From an uncultured Methanomicrobiaceae archaeon (GTDB taxonomy: Archaea; Halobacteriota; Methanomicrobia; Methanomicrobiales; Methanoculleaceae): 64,000 bases of DNA. The stretch is from the NCBI GenBank assembly GCA_963826525.1, contig CAWGXH010000004.1, forward strand, positions 512,001-576,000, written 5' to 3'. Below are positions 39,666-62,711 of this stretch, piece by piece. The notes under the pieces were generated by a model that searched no databases, was not told the origin of the DNA, and saw nothing but the letters and a program-made list of their open reading frames with translations. The translations under genes and the position numbers were made by a program. The first letter of the stretch is position 1; each line of letters starts with the position of its first letter.

Positions 39666-39727
39666 CTCCCCTATCCCTAACCTGCAGAGCGATGCTCCTC
39701 CTTCCGGAAAAAGGGCATCCGGGGCCT

Positions 39728-42387
39728 TTAGTGGAGCACTTCAAACCCGGGGATGCCGAGGATATGTTTTGCGAGGTACATCGCATCGGCCATCGTGGCC
39801 GAACCGTCGTCGCTCACGTCGCCGACATTCTCGTGCATCGTCTCAAACCCGGTCATCCCGAGGCTGTGGCGGGCGATGTAGATGGCGTCGTAGAGGGTGA
39901 CCCGGTTATCTTCGTTCGCATCGCCGTTTTTGATGACCGTCAGGGAGATGGTACCGGTGGCGTTGGAATGGTCGTTTCCGTCCTTTCCGTTCACCCCGAG
40001 TGCGAACGGCTGGTATGCGCCGTCCACAAACGGCGAGGCGACGGTACTCGTGACGTTCTTCATCCACGTTCCGTTCCCGGCAGAGAGCATCGGTGCGGCA
40101 TCGGCACCCCCGATGGCGGAGAGGTCGATCGTGACCGCTGCAACCCCGGCCGCATCGGATACGGCGGCGTGCAGGACCGAGGTTTCAGAGAGGCCGGGAA
40201 GACCGTCGGTGTCGGTGGGGATGTATGCGGGCGAAGCAGCCTCATCCCTGAATCCCCCGGCAGGCAATGCCGGCTTCCCGGTGACCGAGTACCCGCTCAT
40301 CGCCTTGTCGGAAGTGAGGGCGTTCGTCCAGGCAACCATGTCGTCGCCGTTGTTGGAGTTCTTGCAGTATCCGTAGACGCTAAAGGCCGCAAATGTCTCC
40401 AGGTTCTCGAAGGTGTAGTTGATCCGCACCGCTCCCCGGTTCTCGAGGTCTCCGTTCGGTCGGAGGACGCCGGCGTTGAGATCGATGAACATCAGATGGA
40501 AGGTGTTCCCGGCATCGGTCAGGTCCTGGCCTGCGATAGATGGGGTAATCCAAACTCGTTTCCGGTCGGTTTCCAGATCTGCGGGCCGTAGATGAAGTCT
40601 TTCTTCGTGAAGGTTTCGCTCGAGGGAGACGGGCTGATACGTCACGTTGTCAAGAGACGGGGGCTGGTTGCTCAGCGGGTTCGGCGTCCAGGTGTAGCCG
40701 TCGGAGTGACATGGAGTGCAAAATCATCAGGGATTGTCCCGTTCACGGCGACCATCAGGATGATCTCGTCCTCGTAGCCCTTGCCGCCCGAGTCGGTCGC
40801 ATAGAAGGTGCCGCTCTGGTTTTCAGAGACCGTCACCTGGCCGAAGTTCACGGCTGGGTCGGTGGAGATATGCAGAGCGTTGAGACCGCGGTCGTAGCCT
40901 TCGAACCTGACGTTGTAGGTGTTGTTCCCGAAGGCGTTGTACGTTCACGCTGGCGTCGTTGGCGACGTTGAAGAAGATGTTGTTGTAGTCGGGTAGGACG
41001 GAAGGCCCGGTCGGCTCAGTTACGGTGAGGTAGTCGGTCTTCACCACGGAGTCGCTCCCTCCTTCACCGGTAACGGTCAGGTTCACCGGGTAGGTAGCGG
41101 CTGTGGTGTAGGTGTAGGTCGGATTCTGCTCGGTGCTGTCGACGACGCCGTCGTTCTCGAAGTCCCAGGCCCAGGCCGTTGGTGTTCCGCTGGACAGGGT
41201 GCTGTCGACGACACCGTCATTCTCGAAGTCCCAGGCCCAAGAGGTCGGGCTGCCGGTCGAAGCGTCGGTGAAGGCAACGGAGCGGTGCTTCACCGGCGGT
41301 GACGTTCGCGGTAAAGTTCGCAATCGGTGCGTGGCGGTGTATAGGGCACCCCGGTGACCGAGTAGCCGCTGGAACCGATGCCCGAAACCCGGTTCGTCCA
41401 GGAGATCCCCTGTCCCTGGTTCGCCGCGAGGCACCAGCCGTAGCCGTTGAAAGCCGCGGCGGTGGTCAGGTTGGTGAACGTGAACTCGACCTTCGCCCCG
41501 CCGCTATCGGTCAGGGTCGCGCCCGAGAACTTGCTTGGATACATATTCCCGACGTTCAGGTCGACGAACATCAGGTAGGACTCTGCCGACTGGTCGGCGA
41601 CGTCCTGGCCGTAGGAGAGCGGCAGGGAAGGAACCACGAGATCGCCGGGACCCGGTTTCCAGGTCTGCGGCCCGTAGATGAAGTCTTCCTTGGTGAAGGT
41701 CTCGTCGACTGCCCCTTCGGTGTAGGTGTACTCCGTCGGTGCCGCGTTTACCGTCGACGACGGTGTCCAGGTATAGCCGCTCGAGGTGATATGGAGGGCG
41801 AAATCGTCCGGGATCGTTCCGTTCACCGAGACCAGGAGGATGATGTCGTCGTCGAATCCGCGTCCTCCGGTATTGGTGAACCAGAACGCACCCGACTGCT
41901 CGTCGTCGGCGGTGACCTGCCCGGCCGGAACGTTCACATCGTTTGTGATGTGGAGTTCGTTCAGGCCGCCGCCGTCTGCCTTGATGTAGTAGGTGTTGTT
42001 CGGGCCGCTGTAGGTTGCACCGTCGAGGTTGAACTTCACCCCGGCATCGTTGGCGACGTCAAAGAAGATATGTCTGGGTGCGGGGAGCGGCTCGGGGCTG
42101 GTGGAGGTGGCATAGGTGTATGCACCGAGGTCGTCGTACTCCGGCACCTGTTCGGTCGCTGCCGGTATCACATCCTCCTCGGTCGGAGTTGGTTCAGGTA
42201 GGACGGTACTCTCCAGACCAGGGTCCTGGAGGGGCTCCTGCGGAAGCCCGGCAGCCGTTTCGGTTGTGTTTAACGGCAGGTCGGTACCCAGCGCCACCGC
42301 CGGCACGGCGATGATCGCGAGGACCAGCAGCAGGACGGTCAGCCGTCTCTGCAGAACTTTGCTTTGAATACGCTCATCTTCTCTCAT
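39728..42387 (-). CDS. Exported protein: signal peptide, unassigned domain X, PKD, second domain X, Ig-like linker, type I dockerin (several frameshifts)
   Basis: MREDERIQSK...LAIIAVPAVALG signal; two GLN.LHI...YGPQ.WKP...WTN copies; WAWDFENDGVVDSTEQNP PKD; C-terminal GDANEDNRVTLYDA...GDVSDDGSATMADA paired Ca-binding loops. Confidence 0.75.
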
Positions 42388-42595
42388 ACAACAACTCCTT
42401 TCGCCGTACAGGATGCCCGAAGAACTCTTCTCCGGAACCGGCATTCCAAGTGCCTGCATTCGCAGAGACGCCATCAGAGGAATGCACTAACTCTGAATGG
42501 GAGAGTATAAGGTCGTTGTGAATTTGGGAGATTTTAAATACGTTAATTTAATGAAGGCATCATGTCTGAAAAGTTAATGATAAAATTAACTCCCC
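42388..42595 (-). promoter_or_regulatory. Promoter, 5' leader and palindrome, copy A (duplicated at 53581-53790)
   Basis: GGAG RBS, TGCATTC/GAATGCA stem (42455-42486), CTTATA box (about 42506-42511) and AGTTAAT-N6-ATTAACT (42572-42591). Confidence 0.65.
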
Positions 42596-42848
42596 TGGCT
42601 CTCACCGCCCTACGGCGCTCCGGTATCCGACCGATCCTCCGCCTAGAGGTGACAGGTTTTTCCCTCTCCGACCCTCGTCACCAGTGATGCATGCGGACAT
42701 CCTGAATATCGAGGTGACAATTGCCACGCAGGGAGGGGAGGAAAGCCTCCCAGGAGACGCTTCCCACAGCCCATTTCCGGAAATGCCGCAGAGAACATGG
42801 GCAAAATGCCGGAAGCATGATCACTGAAAAAACAGGAAGAGAAGAGGG

Positions 42849-45800: not shown

Positions 45801-48800
45801 CCGAATAACCGTTGCAATAGATACCGTATGTACTGCTCCCGTTGATGCTGAAATTGGAGATGGTCGTGGCATCGGCAGAAACCGTTACGGTCCCGTTGAT
45901 AGTGGTCTCTTCGGGTCCGTTCTCCGACGTGATGGTCAGGGGCTTTGTAACGGTGACGGATTCACTGTATGTCCCGTCTCTGACGACGATCACATCGCCG
46001 TCGGATGCAGCGTCTATGGCTCCCTGGATTGAGGTGAAGTTCGCTCCACCCGAATCGTCGACGTACCATGTCCGGGATGTTCCGGGATTCACGACGATGT
46101 AGTCGGTCCTGACCTCGGAGTCGCTGCCGGCGTCGTTCGCGACGGTGAGGTTCACCGAATAGGTGCTGGCGGTTGTGTAGGTATGGATCGGGCTCTGCCC
46201 GGTGCTGTCGACGACGCCGTCGTTCTCAAAGTCCCAGGCCCAGGAGGTGGGGCTGCCGGTCGATGCGTCGGTGAACTGGACCGTAAGCGGGGCGTCACCG
46301 GAGGTGACGTCTGCGGTGAAGTCCGCGGTCGGTGCAACAGGCACTACGGGTCCCGGCTCCGAGCCCGGGAAGTAGGTCTGCCAGCGGTCGGCGAGCGGAG
46401 CGTTGTCGATCTGGTTGTTGCCGAGCGTATACGCCGCATCGATCACGCCGTTACCGTCGGCATCCTCGCCGGTGCAGCTGCTGTAGTAGTTTCCGAGCGG
46501 GCCTGTGTACTGCGTCTCCTGGTAGGTGTAGTCGGTGGACGAGGTGTTCCAGGCCATGGACAGGGGAACCGGCTTGTTGGTGAACTGGAACAGGTCGGCC
46601 TTGTTGTCGAGGAAGTTATTGAGGAAGATCCGGTTGTCGGCAAGCGTGCACCGCAGGCCGATCGGTGGCGCGGTGTTGTTGGCGAACGTGTTCCAGGCGA
46701 TGGTGACCCCCGAGCACCCGTCGAACCGGGTTGCCGCGTTCTGGCTGCCGCCGTTCGCCTCGAAGGTGTTGTTGGTGAAGATGTGCCCGCTGCCGGTGAT
46801 CAGCATGAACCGGGTCGGATTATTCTCAAAGACGTTGCGGTCCAGCGTGACGTCCTGGCCGGAGATGCCGAGAGAGTGCTGGTCGGAGAAACCGGTGAAG
46901 GTACAGTCCGTGACCGTGCTGCCTGCACCGGAGAAACTGATCGAACCGCCATTGAACATGATCCCGTCGATGACGGTGCCGGGGCCGGAGAATGCGGCAC
47001 CTGCCGGTGAAACCGTCACCACGTCCGCACCCTCGCCCGTGAGGGTGATCGCCTTACCGAGGGGTATGCTCAGGGCATACGACCCGGCGGAGACCAGGAT
47101 CGTGTCGCCGTCGTTCAGAGACGGGCTGGTGAAGGCTGTGTTAAGATCGGTAAAGTCGCAGCCCGAGGCACCGACGGTCACGGTCTTCGGCGGGGGAAGA
47201 TTCACGGTGATGAAGTCGGTCTTCACCTCTGAGTCGCTGCCGTATCCATTCGTGACGGTGAGGTTCACGGTGTAGGTTCCGGCAGAGGAGTAGGTGTGAA
47301 CCGGGCTCTGCTCGGTGCTGTCGACGACGCCGTCGTTCTCGAAGTCCCATGCCCAGGAGGTCGGGTTGTCGGCGGAGGCATCGGTGAATGCAACGGCCAG
47401 AGGCGCGATGCCGGTGGTGACGTTTGCAGTGAAGTCCGCGGTCGGTGCCAGTGTGACCGGGAAGTAAGTCTGCCAGCGGCCGACGAGCGGAGCGTTGTCG
47501 ACCTGGTTGTTGCCGAGCGTATACGCCGCATCAATCACGCCGTTACCGTCGGCATCCTCGCCGGTGCAGCTGCTGTAGTAGTTTCCGAGCGGGCCTGTAT
47601 ACTGCGTCTCCTGGTAGGTGTAGTCGGTGGACGAGGTGTTCCAGGCCATGGACAGGGGAACCGGCTTGTTGGTGAACTGGAACAGGTCGGCCTTGTTGTC
47701 GAGGAAGTTATTGAGGAAGATCCGGTTGTCGGCAAGCGTGCACCGCAGGCCGATCGGTGGCGCGGTGTTGTTGGCGAACGTGTTCCAGGCGATGGTGACC
47801 CCCGAGCACCCGTCGAACCGGGTTGCCGCGTTCTGGCTGCCGCCGTTCGCCTCGAAGGTGTTGTTGGTGAAGATGTGCCCGCTGCCGGTGATCAGCATGA
47901 ACCGGGTCGGATTATTCTCAAAGACGTTGCGGTCCAGCGTGACGTCCTGGCCGGAGATGCCGAGAGAGTGCTGGTCGGAGAAACCGGTGAAGGTACAGTC
48001 CGTGACCGTGCTGCCTGCACCGGAGAAACTGATCGAACCGCCATTGAACATGATCCCGTCGATGACGGTGCCGGCACCCGAGAATGCAGCACCTGCCGGT
48101 GAAACCGTCACCACGTCCGCACCCTCGCCCGTGAGGGTGATCGCCTTACCGAGGGGTATGCTCAGGGTGTACGACCCGGCGGAGACCAGGACCGTGTCGC
48201 CGTCGTTCAGGGACGGGCTGGCAAAGGCTGTGTTAAGATCGGTGAAGTCACACCCGGAGGGACCGACAGTCCATGTCACGGGATCGGAAGACCCTGTTGC
48301 GTCAATGTAGTCCGTCTTGACCGCGGAATCACTACCGAGCGCATTGGTGACCGTCAGGTTGACGGTGTAGGTCCCGACTGTAGCATAGGTATGAGTCGGG
48401 CTCTGCTCGGTGCTGTCGACGACGCCGTCGTTCTCAAAGTCCCATGCCCAGGTGGTCGGGCTGCCGGTCGAGGCGTCGGTGAACTGAACCGCGAGCGGCG
48501 CTTCACCCGATACGGGAGTCGCGGTGAAGTCGGCGACCGGTGCATCGCCGCCGGACGAACCGTCGTTGACCGTGATATAATCAGTCTTTACGAGATAGTT
48601 ACTGCCGGCACTGTGCGTGATGGTCAGGTTGACCGTGTAGGTACCGGCCGATGACATAGGTATGCGAGGGGTTCTGTTCCGTGGAGGTAGTGCCGTCGCC
48701 GAAGTCCCAGTTCCATGCGGTTACGGTGAGCGGCGAGGTGCCCTGGAAATTCACGGTAAGGGGGGCTTGCCCAACCCGGGTATCTGCGGCGGCATTTACC

Positions 48801-51800
48801 ACGCCGTCGAATGCGTATAATTTGCCGTCTCTGCTCGCGATGTAGACGGTCCCATCGGGTGCAATCGACGGAGATGCGCGTATCTCTTTCCCTGTTTCGT
48901 AAAACCATTTCAGGGTCCCGTCCGGGTTCAGGGCATAGAATTTCTTATCCGCGCTGCCGATATAGATAGTCCCGTCCGCACCGATGGCAGGGGAAGCGTA
49001 ACGGATACTTCCCCCGGTAAGATACGTCCATTTCAATGTGCCGTCGGGATTCAGGGCATAAATCTTCTTGTCGCCTTCATTTCCAAAGTAAAGTGTACCG
49101 TCCGTACCTATCACAGGCGAATTACGGATCGTGCCTCCCGTGGTGTATGCCCAGTTGAGGGTTCCATCGGGATTCAGTGCATAGAGATTCTTATCGTTCG
49201 ATCCAAAGTAAATCATACCGTCCGGACCAATTACCGGCGCACCATAGATAGTCGCTCCTGCCCCTCCTGTGACGTACGACCACTTCAGTGTCCCGTCGGG
49301 ATTTAACGCGCATAAGTTCACGTCGGCTCCAAAATAAATCGTGCCATCAGGTCCGATTGCCGGTGTGCCATAACGAATCCCTCCGCAGGGATATGACCAT
49401 TTTTTCGTTCCATCGGGGTTCAATGCATAGAAAGTATCCTCATTATTCCCGATATAAATCGTTCCATCGGGTCCGATAGTGGGACCCCCAGTAATGATCG
49501 CGGTTGCGTTATACGTCCATTTCAATGTACCGTCGGGATTCAGTGCATATACCAGATTATCCAGGTAATTCCCGATATAAATGGTTCCATCCGCGCCTAT
49601 TGCCGGGGGACCACAAAAAGAATTTCCTGCAGTATACGTCCATTTTAACGTTCCGTCAGGATTAATCGCGTATACGTTCTTATCGTAATTCCCGATATAG
49701 ACGGTGCCATCGGATCCGATAACCGGAACGGCTGACAGGAATGATGACGCTCCCGCGGTGTACACCCATTTCGTGGCATTTGTCTGTGCCCCGACATAGG
49801 GAGACCGACCGGTGTTGTTGAGGTCGGCGCCGCCGAGCTTCGGCCAGGCAGAATCGGCGAGGCCGGTCACGGCCGGAGTCTCGCCGCCGCTGACGGTGAT
49901 GTAGTCCGTCTTCACTTCCGCATCGGTGCCGGCGTCGTTCGTGACCGTCAGGTTCACCGAGTAGGTGCCGGCTGCAGCGTAGGTAGTAACCGGGTTCTGC
50001 TCGGTGCTGTCAACAACACCGTCGTTCTCGAAGTCCCACGCCCAGGCGGTAGGGAAACCGGTGGAGGCTCGGTGAACTGCACGGCGAGCGGAACAACCCC
50101 GGACAGGGGCGTTGCCGTAAAGTTTGCCTCGGTCGGGACGACAAAGCCACAGAGGGTATATCTCTCGAACGACGACATCAGCGGGTAATTGTCGGTACAT
50201 GCATCGATATAAGGCTCATCTCCGATCCCGTTGCCGTCCACATCGGTCCCGGTATAGTTCGATCCCCAGTAATTGCCCATCCATGATGCGTGTGCAGAAC
50301 CCATGTACGCGTAGGCGATCTGCTCGGGGCTCTCCCAGTCCTGGGCATGACCGTTGTCATTCACCAGCGGTACATCGTTGCCGGTGATGTCGTTGAGATA
50401 GATGTTGCTTGTTCCGCCACCCTTGGTAATCTTGAAACCGGCCGCATTTGCACTGACGGTATTTTCGTGGATTGTGGTATGGTAATTGCTGTACCACAGA
50501 TAGATACCTGCATCGCCGTTTGAAGAGACGGTGTTGTAAGCGACGTCTGCTTCATCGGCCATATAGAGGATCATACCATGCCCGCCGTTATTGGTGACGG
50601 TGTTGTTGGTGACGATTGTATCGTCTACAGCATATATCCTGAAAACTGCCAGATTTAAGCCGGCGTTGTTGCCGGTGGCGGTGTTCTCGGTGACGGTGTT
50701 GTTGTGTGCGAGGTGGGGAGACACAGAACTGGAACCGTATCCATTGAGATAGACGGCATAATCATTCCGGGTCAGGAAATTTTGCGAAATGGTGTTGTTG
50801 TCGCTCCGGTAGACGTAAACGCCCCTGCCAGCCTTTGATACAGTGTTCTCCTGAATGGTGCAGTTGTCGGCATAATCCAGATAAATACCGTAGATGGCCA
50901 ACCCCGTATCACCTTCCGGTGTCCCGTTGATTGATAAACCCGTGAGAGTGACGCCATCTGCAGTAACATGGATGACCGCAGCAGCCGGATCGGCCGCTGT
51001 GATGACGGTGCTCGCAGGGCCTTCTCGAGCGGATCGTAAGAGTCTTGCCGATCGCAATATTTTCTGCGTAGGTGCCGTTGCGGATGACGACCGTATCCCC
51101 GTCGAGAGTGGCATTAATGGCATCCTGGATCGAGGTGAAGTCAGTCGCCCGAATCGTCGACGTACCACGTCCTTACTCCTGGGCAGACGCGGCGATGTAG
51201 TCCGCCTTGATCTCGGAGTCGCTACCGTATGCGTTCGCGACGGTGAGGTTCACGGTGTAGGTTCCGACAGAGGAGTAGGTGTGAACCGGGCTCTGCTCGG
51301 TGCTGTCGACGACGCCGTCGTTCTCAAAGTCCCAGGCAAGCAGTCGGGCTACCGGTCGAAGCATCGGTGAATGCAACGGTCAGGGGCGCGATGCCGGTGG
51401 TAACGTTTGCAGTGAAACCTGCAGTCGGTGCACAGGTCAGGCCGTGCCGGGAAGTAGGTCGCCAGCGGTCGACGAGCGGAGCGTGCCACTGTGCGCCGAG
51501 CGTATACGCCGCGTCGACACGCCGTTACGCGCACCGCCGGTGTAACGCTGTAAAGCCGAGCGGGCGGTCGCGTCCCGGTAGGTGTAGCGGTGGACGAGGT
51601 GCCAGGCCAGGCCAGGGGAACCGGCGGGTGAACGGAACAGGTCGGCCGGCGAGAAAGGAGGAACCGGTGCGGCAGCGGCCCGCAGGCCGAGGTGGGGCGG
51701 TGGGGCAACGTGTCCGGCGAGGTGACCCCGAGCACCGTCGAACCGGGTCGCCGCGCGGGTCCCACCGCGCCGAAGGTGGGCGAAGGTGGGCCGCGCCGGA

Positions 51801-53580
51801 TACAGCAGAACCGGGTCGGAACCGAAACGTGGGTCCAGCGTAACACGGCCGGAGATGCCGAGAGAGGCGGTCGGAGAAACCGGTGAAGGTACAGCCGTGA
51901 CCGGCGCCGCACCGGAGAAGCGAGACCGCCAGAACCGACCGTCGAGACGGTGCCGGGGCCGGAGAAGCAGCGCCGGCCGGGGAGACCGCACCACGCCGCA
52001 CCTCGCCGTGAGGGTACGCCACCGAGGGGTAGCCAGGGGTACGAGCGGCGGAGACCAGGATCGTCGCCGTCGCAGGGACGAGCTGGAGAAGGCCGAAGAG
52101 ATCGGTGAAGCGCACCGGAGGCGCCGACGGTCCAGGCTGCCGGTGACGTCACGGTGAATAGTGGTCCCCACAGCAGACCGCCGGCACGTCGCCGTCAGGT
52201 TGACGGTGTAGGTGCCGCCGCGGTATAGGTATAGGACGGACCGCCGCAGATTGTCTGACGAACGTCCAGCCAGGAGGTCGGGCTGCCGGTCGAAGTGTCG
52301 GTAAACGGACGCAAACGGAGCAGCCGGAAGTCACGTCGGTGGTGAAGCAGCGACCGGCGCAGGGGGAAGTTCGTCGGTGACGGTTATGTAATCGGTGACG
52401 TTGCTCCACGACGTGCCGGCCGCGTTCGTTGCCGAGTGCCGCACCGGTACGACCGACGCCGGCGAAGGTGTGGACCGGGTTCTGCTCTGTGAAGACCTGC
52501 CCGGTATCGTCGCTGAAATACTGGAGGGTGCAGGGGTATCGGTGAACCCGACTGTGAACGGAGCAGTTCCGGAGGTTACGTTGACGGTGAAGTCCGCGAC
52601 CGGTGCCGTCAGCGGGGTATAGAGGAGCTGAGTACCCGCTCGACCCGGCGCCCGAAATCCGGTTCGTCCAGGAGAATCCCCTGACCCTGGACTGCCGCCA
52701 GCCGCCACGCGTAGGTATTGAAAGTGGCACGGCCGGGCAGGTTATGGAACGTATACTCGACCTTCGCGGCACCGCTGTCGGTCAGCCCGGAGAATACGGT
52801 CGGGTTCAGAGCGCCGACCCCAAGGTCGATGAACATCAGCTGGTAGGTCTGGCCGTCGTTCTGGTCCTGCCCGTAATAGAGCGGCAGGTACGGCGGGACG
52901 TCCAGCGTGCCGGGCCCTGGCTTCCAGGTCTGGGGCCGGTACAGGAAGTCGGCTTTCGTGAACGTCTCTTCGATCACACCATCGTAATGCGAATAGTCGT
53001 CCGGGGGACCGTCCACGGTGGAATTCGGCGTCCAGGCATACCCGCTCGACCTGAGCGTCACGGAAAAGTCATCGGGGATCGTCCCGTTCACGGCAAGCAG
53101 GAGCACGAGGTCGTCGCTCATGCCGGCCGACCCTGTGTTCGTGATGTAGAACGTCCCTGATGGGTCGGTAGCATGCGCGACCGATGCGGTCACCTGCCCG
53201 CTTACGGTTCCGGGATCGGTCGTGACGTGGATCTCGTTCAAGCCGCCGCTGTCGGCTTTGATATAGTACGTGTTGTTATTGCCGGCGCCATAGACAGCCC
53301 CGTCAAGGTTGTACTTCACGCCGGCATCGTTCGCCACGTTGAAGAAGATATGTCGGTTGCTCGACAGGGGCGCGGGAGCGGCGGAGGTGGCGTAGGTGTA
53401 TGCGCCGGTATCGTCGTACTCCAGCACCTGTCCGGTCACCGTCGGGGTCGGCTCGGTTGTGTTCAACGGCAGATCGGCACCCAGCGCCACCGCCGGCACG
53501 GCGATGATCGCGAGGATCAGCAGCAGGACGGCCAGCCGCCCCTGCAGTATTTTGCTTTGAATACGCTCATCTTCTCTCAT
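42849..53580 (-). CDS. Giant (about 3,600 aa) cell-surface protein: signal, domain X, multiple PKD, NosD/pectin-lyase-like beta-helices, PQQ-like beta-propeller, Ig-like, PGF-pre-PGF-like domain and C-terminal TM anchor (many frameshifts)
   Basis: ORF pieces 52609-53709, 52149-52772, 49954-51168, 48599-50200, 44188-48657 and 42849-44078 join in mid-domain with no internal signal peptides; ends ...VIGALYFVRKNR. The single-gene reading is inferred. Confidence 0.7.
46365..47168. repeat. Intragenic direct repeat, copy 1 (beta-helix module), period 1092 bp
   Basis: Near-identical to 47457-48260; matching shadow ORFs are offset by 1092 (46443/47535, 46535/47627, 46800/47892). Confidence 0.95.
47457..48260. 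repeat. Intragenic direct repeat, copy 2
   Basis: The central roughly 470 bp looks identical to copy 1; the few differences lie at the edges. Confidence 0.95.
51440..52140. repeat. Third, deletion-riddled copy of the same module
   Basis: Collinear anchors (gacgagcggagcgt, cgagcgtatacgccgc, gtcggagaaaccggtgaaggtacag, ggagaccaggatcgt) with many missing bases. Confidence 0.85.
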
Positions 53581-53790
53581 ACAACAACTCCTTTCGCCGT
53601 ACGGATGCCGGAAGAACTCTTCTCCGAAACCGGAGTACCGGGTGCCTGCATTCGCAGAGACGCCATTCGAGGAATGCATAAACTCTGATCGGAGAGGGTA
53701 TAAGGTCATTGTGAATTTAGGAAAAGTTAAACATGTTAGTTTAAAAAAGCGACCATGTCTGAAAAGTTAATAATAAATTTAACTCCTTCG
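53581..53790 (-). promoter_or_regulatory. Promoter, 5' leader and palindrome, copy B
   Basis: Same elements as 42388-42595: stem 53647-53678, TATA about 53699-53704, AGTTAAT-N6-TTTAACT 53765-53784. Confidence 0.65.
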
Positions 53791-54022
53791 GGCTCGTTCG
53801 AACCCCCCTTTGTCGACAGATGGCTGCTGGATATTTTCCAGAGTACCCTCTCCCCCGGCATTCTGCCCGGGTTCATTGGAGACATCCTCGAGAAGTGGGC
53901 CGATGCGGAGATCATCATGAAGATGGAGAAAGGCCAACGTCGCGCGGCTCTCCGGCCACAACGATCCTGAAGCGGCGGTCGGCAGCCCGGCAACCGGACG
54001 GCCGGAGAAGAAGGGCCTTCCC

Positions 54023-54840
54023 TTAGAGGGGAATCATCACTGTGCCGAGACAGACGATGCCGAGCACGATGAGCAGCAGAAGATCGCTCTTCCCGGGACG
54101 GGGAGGGCGATAACAGGTTGGCCTCGCGGTCGAAGCGAACCCTCTGCTCTGCATTGCTTCGGTCACGTACCGCGCCCGGTTCATGACCGCTACCGTCATG
54201 GGGACGCCGAGCGCCATGAATTTTCCCCTGTTTTTGATGAACGTCCCCCGGTCGAACTCAAGCCCCCTGGAACGCTGGGCGTCCATGACGTTTCCGAGAT
54301 CCTCGGCGAGCGCCGTCATCGACTTCAGTGCATACCCGAGAGAGAAGGCGATAATCGGGGGCAACCGGCTGGCACGGAGGCTTGCGACGAAATCGGTGTA
54401 GGACGTGGTCATCACGAAGAGGAACGAGACACCCCCGATAGCAAGAACCCGAATTCCCATCGCTGCAGCAAAGAGCAGCCCTCCATGAGTTATCTCCGGG
54501 GAGAACGGGCCAATCTCTGCTGAAAAGTACACCGGGCCCCAGGACACATCCGGAAGAAAAGCGTTGATGACGATGATGAAGATGAAGAGCGGCAGGAGGA
54601 GGGGAAGCAAACGGGAGAACGGCCTGCCGAGGCCGGCGGCAACCGCAAGGCCGACAACGAAGGCAAAGAGGAGTGCGGTGCGACCGGTGACGTCGTGGCA
54701 AATGCGGCGATGCTGATACTGATCAGGGTGAGGAGTTTTGTTCTCGGATCAAGTCGGTGGAGAAACGAATCCACGGGGATGTAACCCGCTGCCCGGCGAG
54801 CATGCCGGCGGCCGGACCGCCTGTATCCGACCGTCGTCAT
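54023..54840 (-). CDS. ecfT: ECF transporter transmembrane T component (frameshift near 54680)
   Basis: SFLHRLDPRTKL, AQRSRGL and AMQSRGF coupling motifs. Confidence 0.9.
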
Positions 54841-56295
54841 GCCTGCTCCTCCGGCACTCTGCGATCGTCCACGATGCGGCCGCGCTCGATCCCGACGATC
54901 CGATCCGCGACTGCGCCGGAGAACTCCGCATCATGCGTCGCGATGATGACCGCCTTTCCCCCGGCGGCGAGAGCGGTGATGCACCCGGCCAGCCTCTGTT
55001 TTGCCCCGGGGTCGAGCCCGAGCGTCGGCTCATCGAGTCACCAGGACCGGCGTATCCATCGTCATGACCGATGCTATGCTCACCCGCTGTTTCTCTCCGA
55101 CCGAAAGGGCAAGCGGCGAGACCTCCAGCCCCAGGTGCCCGATACCGAGCTCTTCGCGCACGGAATCGGTCCTCTGCGCTATCACGTCCGGCAGGGCGCC
55201 GATGTTCGCGGGGGCGAAGGCCAGTTCCTCGGCGATGGTCTCCCCGAAGAGCTGGTAGTCGGCATGCTGGCAGACCAGGCCGACGGTGCGGGCGATCTCC
55301 GCGACGGTACTGTCCCGGATATCTTTTCCGTCCACGGTGATCTGCCCTGACTCCGGGCGGAGAAGGCCGTTTACGTGTTTCAGCAGCGTGCTCTTCCCGG
55401 AGCCGTTCGGGCCTGCGAGCACCGTCACCTCGCCCGGATAGATGGTGAGGGAGACGCTGTCGAGTGCCGGAGTCTGTGCACCCGGATGCCGGAACGTGAC
55501 GTCCTGCAGGGTAATGATGCCTGCGGATGCAGCTCTCGCTCGTGCCGGCCGACGGGATGCTGTGTTCCACGGGAGGGCATGCACCGCACCAGGTTCGCCG
55601 TCGGCGGCTATCGTACCGTCGATGAGGGATATTCGGCGGGAGGCCCATTGGGCGACCAGCTCCGCCCGGTGCTCGGACAGGATGATCGTCATGCCGGCCT
55701 CACGGTTCAGCGCACCGAGGAGGTCGAGGAGTCCGGCCGCACTCGCGGCATCAAGCCCGGAGAACGGTTCGTCAAGGATGAGGATTGCAGGGCGTACAAC
55801 GACTATGGATGCTATCGCCAGTCGCTGGCGTTCCCCCCAGGAGAGGCTGGTCGTCTGCCGGTCCGCAAGGGGATCGAGCCGGAACAGGTGCAGGACCTCG
55901 GTGACCGCCCGGTCGATCCGCGATACGGGCCAGCCGAGCTGCTCGGGGCCGAAGGCAAGCTCACTCACCACGTCGGTCGAGAAGATCTGGTGATCCGGGT
56001 CCTGGAAGACCATGCCGACGGTGGCGGCAAGGTCGCTGATCGTGCAGTCGCGGGTATTCTGCCCGCGGACAAAAATGTCTCCCTCAAGGGTGCCCGGTCG
56101 GGCATGCGGGATCAGACCGTTGCAGCACCGGAGGAACGTCGTCTTCCCGGAGCCGCTCGGGCCGGTCAGCAGTACGCGTTCTCCTTCCCTGATGGTGCAA
56201 TCGATCCCGGTGAGCACCTCCCGTGGCCGCGCCGACCGGGAGGCGGGGTGCCGGAACGAGACCGAGCGGAACTCTATCGCCGTGTCAGCCGTCAT
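54837..56295 (-). CDS. ECF transporter fused double ATPase (frameshift near 55040)
   Basis: Two Walker A motifs (GPSGSGKT, GPNGSGKS), VFQDPDHQ, LSWGERQR and LSVGEKQR. Confidence 0.9.
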
Positions 56296-56842
56296 CCGGC
56301 ACATCGCCCTGCTGCTGCACGATACCCGCCCTGCAGAGGCGCCCGACGATCAGAGCGGCAAGGACACCGCCGATGCCACCGAAGATCAGGTGCGTGACCG
56401 ACGATGCCCCGATGCCGATGAGGATGAAGGTGCTTTCGACGCCCAGAAGCAGGTGCACGCCGTAATTCACCACCATCTTCACGATGTTCCCGGCGGCGCC
56501 GGCGATGAACCCGACCACCGGATGGTCGAGGCGGTAGCCGAACGCAATCGAGACGAGGTCGACGGTGACTCCCATTGCGGTGTACTTGAAGATATCGAAG
56601 ACATGGAGCGCCTCCACGCCGAAGAACGATGCAAGAATGCCGGATACGAGACCGACGTACGTTCCGGCCCCGGGTCTCCGCACGATGGCGGTGCCGATGA
56701 TGACCGGCACCACCCAGAGAATCCCCGAACTCCCGGGGGTGCGGAGCGGAACCTCGATCTCACGCACGACGAAGACGAGCGCTCCGAAGAGCGAGAGCAA
56801 GGCGATCTCGTACAGGCTGAAGTAGGAAGGGCGCTTCATCAT
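56285..56842 (-). CDS. ECF transporter substrate-specific S component (substrate unknown)
   Basis: 185-aa hydrophobic protein with EIALLSLFGAL first helix and IVRRPGAG; directly upstream of the AA and T genes. Confidence 0.8.
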   Translation of the reverse strand: MMKRPSYFSLYEIALLSLFGALVFVVREIEVPLRTPGSSGILWVVPVIIGTAIVRRPGAGTYVGLVSGILASFFGVEALHVFDIFKYTAMGVTVDLVSIAFGYRLDHPVVGFIAGAAGNIVKMVVNYGVHLLLGVESTFILIGIGASSVTHLIFGGIGGVLAALIVGRLCRAGIVQQQGDVPDDG

Positions 56843-57633
56843 CTCTGATCCTCCACAAACGTTGATTCGAGCTCAAGCCGGAAGCCTTCAGGCTGCGGCC
56901 GATCCACGGCGACCATCAGGAACATGTCGGCGACCATGTTTCCGCCGGTGTAGGTGATGTAAAACGATCCCCCGGAATCGGCAGTTTCGGTCACCTGTCC
57001 TTTCCGGGCATCGAGATCGGTAGTTATATGGACTCCGTCCAGACCGGAACCGACCCGCTCGAACCAGAACGTGCAGGTATCCCGTGCCACATCATCGTCA
57101 ACCGTATGCGGGGGATCTGCCACCTCGAGGGTATACCGGTCGCCCTCCCGGAGAGGGGACACCCACCGCGGCGGTTCGCCGGATGCAGCCGTTCCGGAGA
57201 CGTAGTATCCGGAAGTACCGTAGCCGGACTGCCGGTTCGTCCATGTCCTCCCGTCTCCGACATGGAGCCCGTAGACACTGAACGATGCCGTCCCGGCAAG
57301 ATCCGTGAACCGATAGTCGACCCTGACCGAGCCGGTCCTGGAGAGGGCAGGGTTCCCGCCGACTGGCGCCACCCCGAGTTCCACGAAGGCGAGATACCAG
57401 TCTCCGGAAGGCAGGCTGCCCGGGCCGATGGCGATCGCTGTTGCGTAGGGGCGCCAGGACTGGGGGCCGTACCGGAAATCCTGGCAATCGACGGCCGCTG
57501 TGTGCAGGGAAGGGGCAGCCGAACCGCTGTCCTGGGCATAGACCTGCCAGACGGCTGTATCGACCAGGAACGATGCGGCAACGACTACCGCCAGCACGCC
57601 GACCGCCAGCATGACCCTCCTGCGAAACTCCAT
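56839..57633 (-). CDS. Exported or membrane-anchored protein: circularly permuted domain X
   Basis: N-terminal RRR plus hydrophobic segment; the two halves match the PKD-protein domain in swapped order (see findings). Confidence 0.8.
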   Translation of the reverse strand: MEFRRRVMLAVGVLAVVVAASFLVDTAVWQVYAQDSGSAAPSLHTAAVDCQDFRYGPQSWRPYATAIAIGPGSLPSGDWYLAFVELGVAPVGGNPALSRTGSVRVDYRFTDLAGTASFSVYGLHVGDGRTWTNRQSGYGTSGYYVSGTAASGEPPRWVSPLREGDRYTLEVADPPHTVDDDVARDTCTFWFERVGSGLDGVHITTDLDARKGQVTETADSGGSFYITYTGGNMVADMFLMVAVDRPQPEGFRLELESTFVEDQR

Positions 57634-58400: not shown

Positions 58401-59879
58401 TCAGGTTAACGAAACCTCATTAATTTCTCCGATAAAGGCTTCGATCGCCCGGATAACCGTCAAAAACCCATTTTCCTCGGGTGGGGACTGGGCATAGGAG
58501 ACGGCCGCACACTGCTCGAGGATCGAAGCGGCTGCCCGGGTCTCATGACCACGCTCCCGGAGCAGATGCAGCACATCGCCGTCGGCAAGTTCCGTGCCGC
58601 TCCCGTATGCGGACGAAAGGTACAACCGCAGTGCCCTGCCGGCCGTTCCGTACGCCTCCTTCCGGTCGCCACGGTCAAACTGGCTGCGTGCCTCATCGAG
58701 GAGCCGGAGGACATCATCGCGGGGGTCGCGAGGCGGCAGCGGGACGGATGGTTCCTCCGGCTCCGGCGCTCCCGGCGCCCTGTTCCGGATGAGGTACGCG
58801 ATCAGCAGGATGATGCAGAGTGTGCCCACACCGGCGAGCAAAAAGAGACCCGGCGGCTCGTCGAGATCCACCGACCGCACCTCTCCTCCGGCGAGAGTGG
58901 CGATGATCCTCGCCGTCCGGTTCTGACCGTCGGCAAACCCGACGCTGACGAAGATAGTACCGGGAGTAGCGTTCACCGCCGCCGATACCGGGAAGAAACC
59001 GGCATCCGCGAGTTCGCCCTCGAACCGACAGTAGGTCTCGTTTACCGTCAGGATGTCAGGCACCACGAGCGACCGGTCGGTGGCGTATGCTGCATACGCT
59101 GCGCTGCCGTTCACCACCAGGCCGCCTGCGTGTAGTATCTCCCCGGAGCCGCTCCGGTAGCCGAAAGAAAATGTTCCGGTGCCTTCGTCGGTGGGATCGA
59201 TGGTCGTCGTTGCCCGGACGTACCCGTGCGATGTGAGAATGGTATGGATCTCCAGAACCAGCGGGTCATCGTCAAGATTGGCAAACAGTGCGGATCGCAG
59301 AGCCTGCATGCGATCACGCTCTTGTGCCGCCTGCTCCTGGAGCGAACCCAGATCCTGCGCCATCTGCCCGGGTAGTTTTCCGGAAGACGGCGAAGACGAC
59401 CCGCCGGAACCTGAGGAGGTCGAGACCGACGAGACGGAGTTCACCTGCTGCTCCGGCTGCTCCGCTTGTTCCGTCGCCGAACTAACGACATGAACTCGAA
59501 TCTCCGGGAGGGCGACGCGGGTGCGCGGCACGTCCCCGTACTCGAACGCGACCTCGAAGAAAAACGTGCCGGGCTCCGCTGCTGTCCCGGCGCCGGCGGC
59601 TATCTCCCGTGTATCCTGGAAGAGCGTGATCGACCGGGACTGCGTCCTGGCCGCCGGACTGCTCCCTTCCCCGCCCTCCGGCACAAACCGCACCCCTTGG
59701 GTGAGCACCCCGGTGGTATCGGCTCCGAGTGTGTTCTCGACGGCGATCGGGATTTTAACATCCTCGCCGACCTGCACGGTGTAGTCGGACTGCCCGGTCG
59801 AGAGGGTGATGCCCCCGGCCACCGCGGGAGCCACGCACCCGAGAGCGACCAGGACGGCCAGAAAGAGAAGACGCCTCAC
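58401..59879 (-). CDS. Exported membrane protein, BatD-like
   Basis: Signal peptide, Ig-like N-terminus, Ser/Gln-rich linker, late TM helix and helical tail (ALRLYLS); follows the VWA gene. Confidence 0.6.
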   Translation of the reverse strand: MRRLLFLAVLVALGCVAPAVAGGITLSTGQSDYTVQVGEDVKIPIAVENTLGADTTGVLTQGVRFVPEGGEGSSPAARTQSRSITLFQDTREIAAGAGTAAEPGTFFFEVAFEYGDVPRTRVALPEIRVHVVSSATEQAEQPEQQVNSVSSVSTSSGSGGSSSPSSGKLPGQMAQDLGSLQEQAAQERDRMQALRSALFANLDDDPLVLEIHTILTSHGYVRATTTIDPTDEGTGTFSFGYRSGSGEILHAGGLVVNGSAAYAAYATDRSLVVPDILTVNETYCRFEGELADAGFFPVSAAVNATPGTIFVSVGFADGQNRTARIIATLAGGEVRSVDLDEPPGLFLLAGVGTLCIILLIAYLIRNRAPGAPEPEEPSVPLPPRDPRDDVLRLLDEARSQFDRGDRKEAYGTAGRALRLYLSSAYGSGTELADGDVLHLLRERGHETRAAASILEQCAAVSYAQSPPEENGFLTVIRAIEAFIGEINEVSLT

Positions 59880-60823
59880 GGCAGGATCCTCCCCCGGCCG
59901 TAGCGGAGGTAGATCTCCAGCAGGATGACCGCGAGCGCCCCGGCGAAGAAGAGATCGCGGATGCTCGTATCTTTCGGCTCACGCGGGATTTCATCGGTCA
60001 GCCCGGCATAGATCGTTGCAAGCGTCCCTTCGTCGGCCGCTGCGTAGTACTCCCCCCCGGTCGTGCGGGCGATCGCCCGCAGCGTCTCTTCGTCGAGCGC
60101 AGCATACCCGGACACGCCCGTCTCGTCGTATCCCGTCGTCACGGAGTCAGGGGAGCCGATGCCCACGGCGTAGACCGGCACGTTCCGTTCGCGGGCGTAG
60201 GCAGCGGCCTCTGCCGGAGAGAAGGTGCCTGCGTTGTTGGCGCCGTCGGAGAGGAGAACAACCACCCGGTGCCGGTTCGGGATGGAATCGGCCATGTCGA
60301 TGCCGAGGGCCAGTCCGTCGCCGAGGGCCGTCTGTCCCTCCCGGGCGCGGACACCGCGGAGCCTCTCGATCACCCGGTCCCGGTCGGGAGAGAGGTAGGC
60401 AGCGCTCGTTGCACCGGACTCGAAGACGACGACTCCTGCATAGTCATCCTGATTGAGGTGGGAGAGCAGGATCTCCGCGGCGGCTTTTGCAGCCTCCAGA
60501 CGGGTGGGCTGGTAATCGGTCGCCTGCATGCTCCCGGAGGTATCCAGCACCAGCACCACGTTGACACCCTCGTCCACCCCTTCGAGCGGGATCTGCGGGT
60601 CGGCAAGGCCCACCAGGATGAGAGCGAGGGCGAGGAGGGCGAGGGCGAAGAGGGTATGCGGGCGCCGCAGGCGATTCGAACCCCGGGCTTGCGCGGCAAC
60701 CACGACCCGGGAGAAGGTGAGCGCCGCATATGATCGTTCCCGAACCGCTCGCCGGTAGAGGAGGCAGAGAACCGGAATCGCGGCCAGGCCGACGAGCCAG
60801 GCAGGTTCTGCAAATCCGGTCAT
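59876..60823 (-). CDS. VWA-domain membrane protein (BatA-like)
   Basis: FAEPAWL N-terminus, MIDAS DTSGS, TALGDGL, LLSDG, C-terminal TM. Confidence 0.92.
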   Translation of the reverse strand: MTGFAEPAWLVGLAAIPVLCLLYRRAVRERSYAALTFSRVVVAAQARGSNRLRRPHTLFALALLALALILVGLADPQIPLEGVDEGVNVVLVLDTSGSMQATDYQPTRLEAAKAAAEILLSHLNQDDYAGVVVFESGATSAAYLSPDRDRVIERLRGVRAREGQTALGDGLALGIDMADSIPNRHRVVVLLSDGANNAGTFSPAEAAAYARERNVPVYAVGIGSPDSVTTGYDETGVSGYAALDEETLRAIARTTGGEYYAAADEGTLATIYAGLTDEIPREPKDTSIRDLFFAGALAVILLEIYLRYGRGRILP

Positions 60824-61719
60824 TTAACCACCCCGGTACCGCGGGTGCGCGTAGAGGCGGCGCAGGGGCAGGTCATAGGGCTCCTGTGTGGAGACCCGGA
60901 CTTCAGGCACCCGGCACGAACGCAGAGCGCCTCCGATACGGTCGTCCGCCACGGCTACGGCATCGGCATAGGCGCTGCGGAAGGAGGAATCCGAGGTATC
61001 TACGAGCACCTGCTCGCCGGTCTCCGGATCTTCGAGAATCACCTGCCCCACGTCCGGGAGGCAGTATTCCGCGGGATCGGTCACCCTGATGGCAGTGGTC
61101 TCATGCCGCCGCCGCAGGTGTGCCAGATCCCGGGCGAACCCGGGGTCGTCGAAGTCGGAGAGGACGATGACCGAACATCTGCGCCTGACCCTCGTGCAGA
61201 GAAACCTGAAGGCGGCGGAGAGGTCGGTGCCCGTCCCCGAAGGATCGGTGCGTAACGAGGGCCTGCACCAGCCTGATGACCTGGCTCCTGCCCGCACGGG
61301 CCGGGATAAACTCGCTCGACGCGGTCCGTGGCGATGCAGAGGCCCACCCGCCCGTTCTGCCGGTGGGCGGCAAAGATCAGGCTGGCGGCCACTTCGAGTA
61401 TCCGGCGATCTTTGCTGGTCGAGGACCCGAACGCCGCGGACCCCGACCGGTCGAGGACGAGGTAGTAGGTCTGGTTCCGCTCTTCCTCGTACTCCCTGAC
61501 GAAGAGCCGATCAAGGCGTGCCGAGGCCTTCCAGTCGATCGTCCGGGCGTCGTCGCCGGGGAGGTACTCGCGGAGGTTTGCAAGGGCCATCCCGCTCCCC
61601 CGGAGCGGCGATCGATAGGGTCCGGCACAGGAGCCATCGGCCAGCGCGGCGGTTCGGATCTCGATCCGCCGGATCTGCCGGAGCAGGTCTGCCCGTTCCT
61701 CGGCATCGCTCACCGTCAT
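60824..61719 (-). CDS. DUF58 protein (frameshift near 61310)
   Basis: LREYLPGDDARTIDWKASAR, VREYEEER, DRSGS and VIVLSDF motifs. Confidence 0.9.
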
Positions 61720-62711
61720 GGCACCTCCACGACCGCCAGAATGTCCCGGACAACCTCTTCCGGGAGGATATCGTCCGCCTCCGCTTCGAAGGTGAGGAGC
61801 ACCCGGTGCCTGAGGACCGCGAGGGCAAGGGCGCGGATATCGTCCGGGACGACGTAACCCCGCCCGTTCAGCACCGCGTGCGCCTTGCCGCAGAGAAGCA
61901 GGGCCAGCGATGCACGGGGGGAGGCTCCAAAAGCGATCACAGGCTCGAGATCGAGGCCGTAGGCTGCCGGGTGCCGGGTGGCATCGACGAGCCGAGCGGC
62001 ATAGCGTTTCACAGACGGATCGGCGTATACCGACCTGACGAACGACTGGAGGGCGACCACACCGGCGGCATCGATGACCGGCGCCGGAGGGGCGGGCTGC
62101 TCCGCCGTGAACCGGTCGAGGATAGCGACCTCGTCATCGAGGCTCGGGTAGTCCATCCGGATCTTGAGCATAAACCGGTCGAGCTGCGCCTCGGGGAGCG
62201 GGTAGGTGCCTTCCGATTCGAGCGGGTTCTGGGTGGCGAGGACGAAGAACGGATGCGGCAGCGGATACGTCTCGCCCTGAATGGTGACCTGCCGCTCCTG
62301 CATCGCCTCGAGGAGGGCGGACTGCACCTTCGGCGGGGCGCGGTTGACCTCGTCGGCAAGGATGATCTGGTGGAAGATCGGCCCCTGGATGGTCCGGAAG
62401 GCGGCTGTGTGCCGGTCGTAGATCCGGGTCCCGGTAATATCGGCAGGGAGGAGATCGGGGGTAAACTGAAGGCGGGCGAAGGTGCAGTCGAGGCAGTGCG
62501 CGAGGGTCCTGACCGTGAGCGTCTTCGCGATCCCGGGAACTCCTTCGAGGAGGGCATGACCGCCGGCAAGCACCGCCACGAGCACCTGGTCAACAACCGC
62601 CTCCTGCCCGACGATCACCGTCTCTATTCCGGAACGAACCTCATCGAGAGCGGCTGCGTGCTCCTGTGCCTGGCGATTGAGCGCCGAAATCTCTGTATCC
62701 ATGTTTCCCAT
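61716..62711 (-). CDS. moxR: MoxR-family AAA+ ATPase
   Basis: LEGVPGIAKT, QFTPDLLPADITG, DEVNRAPPKVQSALLEAMQE and ATQNPLESEGTYPLPEAQLDRF motifs. Confidence 0.96.
   Translation of the reverse strand: MGNMDTEISALNRQAQEHAAALDEVRSGIETVIVGQEAVVDQVLVAVLAGGHALLEGVPGIAKTLTVRTLAHCLDCTFARLQFTPDLLPADITGTRIYDRHTAAFRTIQGPIFHQIILADEVNRAPPKVQSALLEAMQERQVTIQGETYPLPHPFFVLATQNPLESEGTYPLPEAQLDRFMLKIRMDYPSLDDEVAILDRFTAEQPAPPAPVIDAAGVVALQSFVRSVYADPSVKRYAARLVDATRHPAAYGLDLEPVIAFGASPRASLALLLCGKAHAVLNGRGYVVPDDIRALALAVLRHRVLLTFEAEADDILPEEVVRDILAVVEVP

Follow-up and report, generated by a model that had tools for sequence, protein, structure and literature searches.

A Probable Natural Circular Permutant of a Methanogen Surface-Protein Domain, Encoded in an Operon for an Energy-Coupling-Factor-Type Transporter

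The Permuted Gene and Its Protein

The window analyzed here is a stretch of 64,000 nucleotides from an uncultured Methanomicrobiaceae archaeon (assembly GCA_963826525.1, contig CAWGXH010000004.1, positions 512,001 to 576,000 of the forward strand). Unless a contig is named, positions are counted from the first letter of the window. Its G+C content is about 60–66%, and the source genome is 87.6% complete with 5.3% contamination. The window codes for a protein of 264 amino acids (aa), here called the permuted protein, in which the two parts of a domain occur in swapped order. This domain, for which we use the name X, is beta-rich and about 245 aa long, and three copies in normal order (A, B and C) are encoded in the same window. 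Copy C is found 3.5 kb downstream of the permuted gene and shares 63% identity with copy A over X residues 3–228. The permuted gene appears to be the second gene of a tight operon, the others coding for a 234-aa protein and for the S, A and T components of a transporter of the energy-coupling factor (ECF) type. Taken as a whole, the data are best explained if the 264-aa protein is a true circular permutant, encoded as such in its gene, of a beta-sandwich-like domain of about 245 aa that has not been described before, and if the gene is part of an ECF-type operon. We assign a probability of about 80% to this explanation. The coordinates of all features are listed in Table 1.

The predicted layout of the permuted protein is, from the N-terminus, a membrane anchor, the strands of the C-terminal part of X, a join of about 15 residues, and the strands of the N-terminal part of X. 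The start of the protein (M-E-F-x-R-R followed by a hydrophobic run) is conserved in the family of short permuted proteins, as represented by an alignment of 22 sequences (A1). The distribution of charges suggests an inside-N topology of the anchor.

Swapped Order of the Two Parts

A preliminary description of this DNA, made from the sequence alone, had claimed that the first half of the 264-aa protein matches the second half of X, and that its second half matches the first half of X. All sequence strings quoted there are present. The strings used for comparison belong to the X copies in the open reading frame (ORF) at 41290–42474 and in the frameshifted ORF at 39728–40645. When the permuted protein is compared to the window by tblastn, residues 38–156 match 41748–41329 (E 3e-15, 37% identity) and residues 188–258 match 41994–41779 (E 2e-9). 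Since the second match lies upstream of the first on the minus strand, the order is swapped relative to copy A. The region of copy C (52632–53286) shows the swapped pattern, too.

Both correspondences are far stronger than those of shuffled sequences, a control that the preliminary description had proposed. In Smith-Waterman alignments, the first part scores 175 against the C-terminal part of X (shuffles 31.3 ± 5.4, z 26.6) and the second part scores 122 against the N-terminal part (shuffles 27.6 ± 5.0, z 19.0); none of 1000 shuffles reaches either score. The two wrong-way pairings remain at z 0.7 and 0.0 (1000 shuffles). Profiles were built from alignment A1 and from an alignment of 33 X sequences (A2) and were compared with hhalign. 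Residues 44–149 align with X 126–247 (E 1.6e-24), and residues 165–258 align with X 4–102 (E 1.4e-18), while four control pairings have E-values of 0.1–0.55. Half against half inside each family, the values are 0.52 and 0.1. These are at the level of noise, so the halves are not internal repeats, and there is no repeat that mimics a permutation.

The most compact evidence comes from a comparison to the X profile joined to itself. A single colinear alignment is obtained, in which residues 38–261 correspond to X 120–248 followed by X 1–105. It covers 211 columns (E 1.7e-36, score 256), compared to 113 columns and a score of 151 for a single X; a doubled-domain comparison of this kind had also been put forward in the preliminary description, and it came out as expected there. 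Motifs common to both families (YGPQxW[KR]P, TN[R], GL[DN]xxH and TGG) are found at equivalent positions.

The claim for the first half thus stands (E 1.6e-24, z 26.6), and that for the second half holds with a changed boundary. In the second part, homology sets in at residue 165 (RYTLEVADPP, compared to HIFFDVANDAG in X) and not at GSGLDG. As a consequence, the linker, which does exist and had been estimated at about 12 aa, extends from about residue 150 to about residue 164. The loop described as GYTWTP...ETFTK had been considered lost at the new termini. About 14 residues (X 106–119) are indeed missing, but the strand equivalent to AVDETFTK is retained as HTAAVDCQ. With these corrections, the swapped order is confirmed, far above chance. 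At the level of sequence, the N-terminal portion of each protein corresponds to the C-terminal portion of its counterpart, which is how a circularly permuted pair is defined in PMC3320104.

Predicted Structures

Structures were predicted with AlphaFold2 (AF2). The model of the permuted protein has a predicted local distance difference test score (pLDDT) of 83 and a predicted template modeling score (pTM) of 0.77. It consists of an N-terminal helix (residues 2–35) and 14 strands. The model of X (pLDDT 86, pTM 0.88) has 15 strands. Based on the doubled-X alignment, all 14 predicted strands of the permuted protein correspond to X strands in the same cyclic order: X strands 8–15 (X 120–244) come first, at residues 44–146, and are followed by X strands 1–7 (X 5–105), at residues 166–261. 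Only a short X strand (179–181) and a helix (192–195) are devoid of a counterpart. The chain opening coincides with a variable loop (X 106–119), and the old termini are joined by residues 150–164 or thereabouts. From the shortness of this join (about 15 residues), the native N- and C-termini of X may lie near each other, as the preliminary description had proposed.

In a Foldseek search against the Protein Data Bank (PDB), nothing was found at E ≤ 0.001 for either model. Weak rows for the permuted model are legume lectins and sandwiches of the GH11/GH12 type (E ≥ 1.8e-3, TM ≤ 0.28). In the wide mode of VIA-align, the permuted model retrieves jelly-roll, CBM and GOLD domains with Z up to 6.9, and the X model retrieves AvmM (Z 7.3) followed by Ig-like sandwiches. 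These Z values are within the common range of the tool; no neighbor stands out, and no fold family was assigned. Small single-domain neighbors (99–146 aa) align across the permuted model from about residue 40 to about residue 262, which indicates that both parts share one compact domain.

Conservation and Phylogeny

Among 201 genomes of the order, 44 (the source genome included) contain a full-length match to the permuted gene (E ≤ 5e-30). The gene is present in five of the six families. When the source genome is set aside, it is found in 7/43, 11/12, 13/39, 9/43 and 3/43 genomes of families f1, f3, f4, f5 and f6, respectively, and in 0/20 genomes of family f2. In the 43 other genomes, length and order are the same; the frame is intact in 42 and in two pieces in one (G185). 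The nearest protein relatives carrying a genus name are from Methanoculleus, Methanofollis and Methanoregula. For orthologues of the same family (seven sequences, 21 pairs), the ratio of nonsynonymous to synonymous substitution rates (dN/dS) is 0.16–0.29 with a median of 0.23. The permuted gene is kept under purifying selection.

Broader searches gave the same picture. A word-indexed search with the permuted protein returned 31 clusters (220–273 aa, 38–100% identity), each of which aligns colinearly with it. When 1.84 billion representatives were searched with a profile, 335 matches were obtained at E ≤ 0.001. The best 150 of these comprise 28 full-length proteins that match in a single stretch (237–283 aa), 6 single-stretch fragments and 116 proteins that match in 2–6 stretches, the latter being X proteins of normal order.

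For a census of domain order, hidden Markov models of the two half-domains (N and C) were built from unpermuted X only and were applied to the 286 proteins gathered in the analysis. The order NC was found in 186 proteins, NCNC in 28, NCNCNC in 6 and CN in 56, the latter all being 174–283 aa long. The remaining 10 architectures are partial or fragmentary (four C, two N, two CNCNC, one NCN and one CNC). The preliminary description had asked if homologues keep the swapped order, and this is the case for all 56 short family members of the census as well as in the 44 genomes.

These orthologues also bear on the possibility that the gene arose as a chimera during assembly, or that it is what remains of a decaying X-X tandem and has no function of its own. 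Numerous genes in the window are broken by frameshifts, and the completeness and contamination of the genome given above could be taken in the same sense. Against this, the permuted gene has an intact frame, the same length and order recur in 43 other genomes, dN/dS is 0.23, and the start, the anchor and the operon are conserved. Together with the same operon context at all 19 other loci examined (see below), these orthologues rule out a misassembly at the junction, the concern voiced in the preliminary description. Among sequencing runs, none with RNA was listed, and the six DNA runs contain only 0.05–0.10 of the sampled sequence words. We consider a chimera or remnant extremely improbable, and it is already refuted by the orthologues.

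A FastTree phylogeny of 230 domain units with less than 80% identity separates the 36 permuted from the 194 standard units by one branch (support 0.973). This fits with one permutation event for all permuted units.

X genes and the permuted gene largely share their distribution. As counts over the 201 genomes, which include related genomes that are not independent, 43 have both, 4 have only X (G118, G195, G155 and G021), one has only the permuted gene (G133, 88% complete), and 153 have neither. Within genera, both the X genes and the operon of the permuted gene have a patchy distribution (e.g., 9 of 37 genomes in one genus, g2), as in a mobile or frequently lost genomic island.

Domain X in Surface Proteins

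In normal order, X is found in large methanogen proteins that are secreted or located at the surface, often in several copies per chain. Within a length window of 216–690 aa, 214 unpermuted homologues were counted. Source names among these are Methanobacterium, Methanospirillum, Methanosphaerula and Candidatus Argoarchaeum. When the permuted protein and the three X copies were compared to Pfam and NCBIfam, no family was obtained at E ≤ 0.1 beyond chance-level rows, and a search of PDB sequences with the X profile gave nothing at E ≤ 1. In the ESM Atlas, no usable match was found for X, and the permuted protein matches unnamed archaeal clusters with scores of 0.78 and 0.76. The labels “nitroreductase” and “PKD repeat protein”, which some short X proteins carry in their sources, do not describe X.

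Paired C-terminal repeats resembling DxNxDGxxD, which look dockerin-like by eye, were noticed in P0166, P0171, P0182 and the ORF at 39728–40645 of the window. Among X homologues, P0033 is annotated with PF00404, and P0117 is named “Dockerin dom...”. The motif, as read by eye, suggests that X proteins are parts of surface assemblies of the cohesin-dockerin type.

The region 39700–56300 (minus strand) contains numerous frame-split genes, among them the ABC (ATP-binding cassette) ATPase, the T component and X copies B and C. What appears to be a single giant surface protein with X, PKD, NosD and propeller domains runs, with broken frames, from 53709 down to 44188; orthologous open frames elsewhere are 2000–3400 aa long. 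The splits could be assembly indel errors or real decay. Four more X copies, including an intact paralogue of copy B, are encoded on a paralogous 13.8-kb contig of the same genome (C1). This contig nearly duplicates the region 39700–44100 with intact frames, the X domains having 96% protein identity (e.g., C1:10772–11515), and also repeats the X-PKD-X-dockerin-like protein and the C-terminally anchored protein encoded there. It may represent a second strain or an uncollapsed repeat, the genome having the contamination of 5.3% mentioned above. Outside the window, 1.8 kb past its end, a 254-aa open frame matches only the N-terminal part of X (contig position 577783–577977, plus strand), which may be a degraded or frameshifted X copy.

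Origin of the Permutation

We regard the permuted form as the derived one, because X in normal order is more widespread and the permuted form was found only as a short family. The preliminary description had proposed an origin by tandem duplication and truncation. Proteins with several X domains bear on this. At 45 of 46 junctions between the C-terminal part of one X and the N-terminal part of the next, the spacer is at least 71 aa long and usually contains another domain. The exception is P0157 (1068 aa), with a direct X-X tandem (spacer of about 0 aa) and a third X that follows after a spacer of about 79 aa. Residues 35–257 of the short-family profile match residues 151–374 of this protein colinearly. 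In the short family itself, the end-corrected spacer has a median of 0 aa and ranges from −12 to +4 (n = 56). The existence of a direct tandem fits the proposal; a half-truncated intermediate was not seen in the census. Permutation by tandem duplication and subsequent truncation is plausible.

By this route, which is the most likely one, a direct X-X tandem may have lost its outer halves a single time, in one ancestral methanogen of this order, leaving the permuted X. The chain would have been opened in the variable loop X 106–119, and the old termini would have been fused via the join of about 15 residues.

Other arrangements were considered. An apparent X-X tandem at C1:4410–5006, colinear in tblastn, was rejected because its upstream part proved to be a PKD domain upon translation, the extension of the match being spurious. 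The four proteins of CNC, CNCNC and NCN form begin or end at contig edges or have long spacers. Separate half-proteins were not found among the 286 proteins of the census; the six single-half cases are short fragments or frameshifted copies of the CN family. As separate halves are missing from this set, an origin by fission and fusion is unsupported.

A related possibility is that X consists of two autonomous modules, which the short protein contains in the other order due to domain shuffling or fission and re-fusion. Each part has about 100–130 aa, which is domain-sized, and the parts lack similarity to each other, as would different modules. However, the parts never occur alone in the 286 proteins except as contig-end or frameshift fragments, and they are always adjacent within X. 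The pTM values of 0.88 and 0.77 are those expected of a single rigid unit, small chains consisting of one domain align over both parts, and the cut is in a variable loop while the join connects the old termini with a spacer of about 0. Two shuffled modules are, in our view, very unlikely, and we retain the permutation of a single domain.

Operon and Genomic Neighborhood

The permuted gene and the gene for the S component overlap by 4 nt (ATGA), the stop codon of the former overlapping the start codon of the latter. In all 19 other loci that were examined, the genes follow each other in the same order (234-aa gene, permuted gene, S gene and ATPase gene); the comparison covers these four genes, and the T gene was seen in the window only. 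S, T and two A components are encoded together, and the genes thus constitute an ECF-type ABC transporter operon.

Table 1. Features of the permuted gene, its operon and the unpermuted copies of domain X (positions in the window).
Feature	Position	Strand	Remarks
Permuted X protein, gene	56839..57633	−	ORF, 264 aa; intact frame; orthologues 252–283 aa
Membrane anchor, N-terminal, residues 1–35	57529..57633	−	RRR motif, then hydrophobic helix; AF2 helix 2–35
Residues 44–149, C-terminal part of X (X 126–247)	57187..57504	−	hhalign, tblastn, shuffles
Residues 150–164, join of old X C-terminus to old X N-terminus	57142..57186	−	gap in doubled-X alignment
Residues 165–258, N-terminal part of X (X 4–102)	56860..57141	−	hhalign, tblastn, shuffles
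Conserved upstream gene, 234 aa	57636..58340	−	stop 2 nt before start of permuted gene
ECF-type S-component-like membrane protein	56285..56842	−	PF09819, 38.9 bits (cut-off 25.2)
Double ABC ATPase (A component)	55030..56304	−	PF00005 in two stretches, E 2.3e-56; frame ends early in second ABC domain
T component (CbiQ family), two frames (54490–54840 and 54023–54610)	54023..54840	−	PF02361, E 1.2e-19 for second piece; first piece by eye
X copy A, unpermuted	41341..42084	−	in ORF 41290–42474; tblastn; AF2 model
X copy B, unpermuted, split across frames	40270..40926	−	approximate limits; tblastn 40926–40681 and 40635–40567; rest in ORF 39728–40645
X copy C, unpermuted	52672..53358	−	in ORF 52609–53709; end runs on in other frame

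The 234-aa gene shows 57–85% identity in the 19 other loci, compared to 40–78% for the permuted gene in the same loci. In NCBIfam, its product resembles methanogenesis marker 11 in the C-terminal part of the latter, weakly and below threshold (E 1.4e-7, 31 bits compared to a cut-off of 255.8). It also has a partial match to the PDB entry 8vd6_A, “CAP REPEAT” (E 1.3e-8, 50 residues). By eye, its N-terminus (LALDDTDN) seems to resemble the kinase domain of the TiaS type.

An Rfam scan of the window revealed no riboswitch near the operon, and hence no hint to a substrate. The only Rfam match in the window is to group II intron domains D1–D4 (RF02012; 63316–63451, plus strand, 58.2 bits, E 2.1e-9). 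Farther upstream (59876–62711, minus strand), three genes preceding that for a 492-aa membrane protein presumably code for a MoxR-type ATPase, a DUF58-like protein and a VWA-domain protein, as judged by eye.

Function

The gene context leads us to propose, tentatively, that the permuted protein may be an extracytoplasmic, membrane-tethered accessory of the ECF-type transporter. The binding surface offered by the permuted X would be that of the X domains in the neighboring surface proteins, and the permuted X would be held near the membrane via its new N-terminus.

A complex of the S component and the permuted protein was predicted with a score of 0.45 (0.45, 0.47 and 0.45 in the individual runs), compared to 0.00 for the best of three controls. 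This is a weak score. Of 80 solved complexes, 58 reach the mark applied, as do 2 of 110 mismatched pairs; with a score of 0.60 or less, it is reached by only 7 of the 80 solved complexes and by both of the mismatched pairs that pass. The runs agree in at least 50% of the contacts, and the pLDDT of the partner is at least 77. Our own alignments were used, so the calibration counts are rough.

The permuted protein might instead be unrelated to transport and serve as a membrane-anchored docking or assembly partner of the nearby secreted X proteins, merely sharing a promoter with the ECF genes. In at least 37 of the 43 other genomes, the matches listed include an unpermuted X on the contig of the permuted gene, no more than about 11 kb away. 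This proximity speaks for docking, as do the joint gain and loss of the set (43 with both, 4 and 1 with one, 153 with neither) and the weakness of the complex score. The translational coupling to the S-component gene (ATGA) speaks against it, as does the fact that the permuted gene is flanked by the 234-aa gene and the S gene in all of the 19 loci. We consider docking to the exclusion of transport doubtful. Docking and a role in transport can both hold, as they are not mutually exclusive.

The transporter-accessory role can be extended to a more specific proposal. The permuted X could be a fourth, extracytoplasmic and hitherto unrecognized subunit of a new ECF-type transporter, the permutation having moved the chain ends such that X can be tethered directly to the membrane beside the S component. 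There, it would receive a ligand captured by the numerous normal-order X domains of the giant surface proteins encoded nearby, as part of a nutrient relay from surface to membrane that is gained and lost as one island. As a specific scheme, this is unlikely.

Several points weigh against the explanation given at the outset, i.e., a genuine permutant of X in an ECF-type operon. The alignments used for AF2 are shallow (22 and 33 rows), and residues 32–40 and 175–179 of the permuted model are of low confidence. For the origin, there is a single direct tandem among 46 junctions and no half-truncated intermediate in the 286-protein census. The functional assignment draws on gene context and a weak complex score. 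For the S component, a profile search of PDB sequences returned no solved relative at E ≤ 1, the YkoE chains included, so no substrate can be named. The best structural neighbors of the two models also differ. This was graded as neutral rather than contrary, because a sequential aligner is expected to treat permutants differently.

Relation to Known Systems

Extra components of ECF transporters, such as CbiN and NikK/NikL, are small membrane-anchored proteins with a domain on the outside that are encoded together with the transporter; the permuted protein, with its predicted anchor and outside domain, resembles these. The operon, with its dedicated S, A-A and T genes, is also similar to those of group I ECF transporters with a dedicated S component, such as the YkoE type (PF09819), the subject of PMC5037267. 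It differs from the YkoE type in that the S component matches PF09819 only modestly and that the accessory belongs to family X, devoid of a Pfam or NCBIfam match.

Natural circular permutations as such are textbook material. One database holds 2,238 circularly permuted structure pairs, and three of the cases treated in the same source (PMC3320104) are relevant here. In saposin and swaposin, as in X, the halves are swapped at the level of the gene, and unpermuted tandem repeats could supply the precursor. However, saposin is a helical lipid binder of 80 aa while X is a beta-rich archaeal surface domain of about 245 aa, and swaposin is an insert in a protease while the permuted X is a stand-alone, membrane-anchored protein. 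Concanavalin A and favin are the classic permuted beta-sandwich pair. Concanavalin A is, however, permuted after translation, whereas here the gene itself is permuted, and the permuted model has no significant structural match to lectins. In DNA methyltransferases, as described there, permutation occurred by duplication with observable tandem forms. These have documented intermediates, in contrast to X, for which P0157 is the only direct tandem seen in this analysis and partly truncated intermediates did not turn up. The permutation-by-duplication model, as given in that source, fits the X data.

In the literature searched (supplements not included), no paper was found on domain X or its permutation. 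While the phenomenon is known, what is new is the conserved context of an ECF operon beside the genes for X surface proteins.

Significance

The case is unusually clean. One genome encodes both forms at a distance of a few kb, the permutation probably goes back to a single ancient event, the permutant has remained intact and conserved, and a direct tandem still exists in another protein. The case also brings out a domain family that had not been described; it is abundant on methanogen surfaces and is devoid of a Pfam or NCBIfam match or a solved relative. The family is tied to a dedicated ECF-type operon, which provides a handle on what giant archaeal surface proteins bind and makes the function testable.

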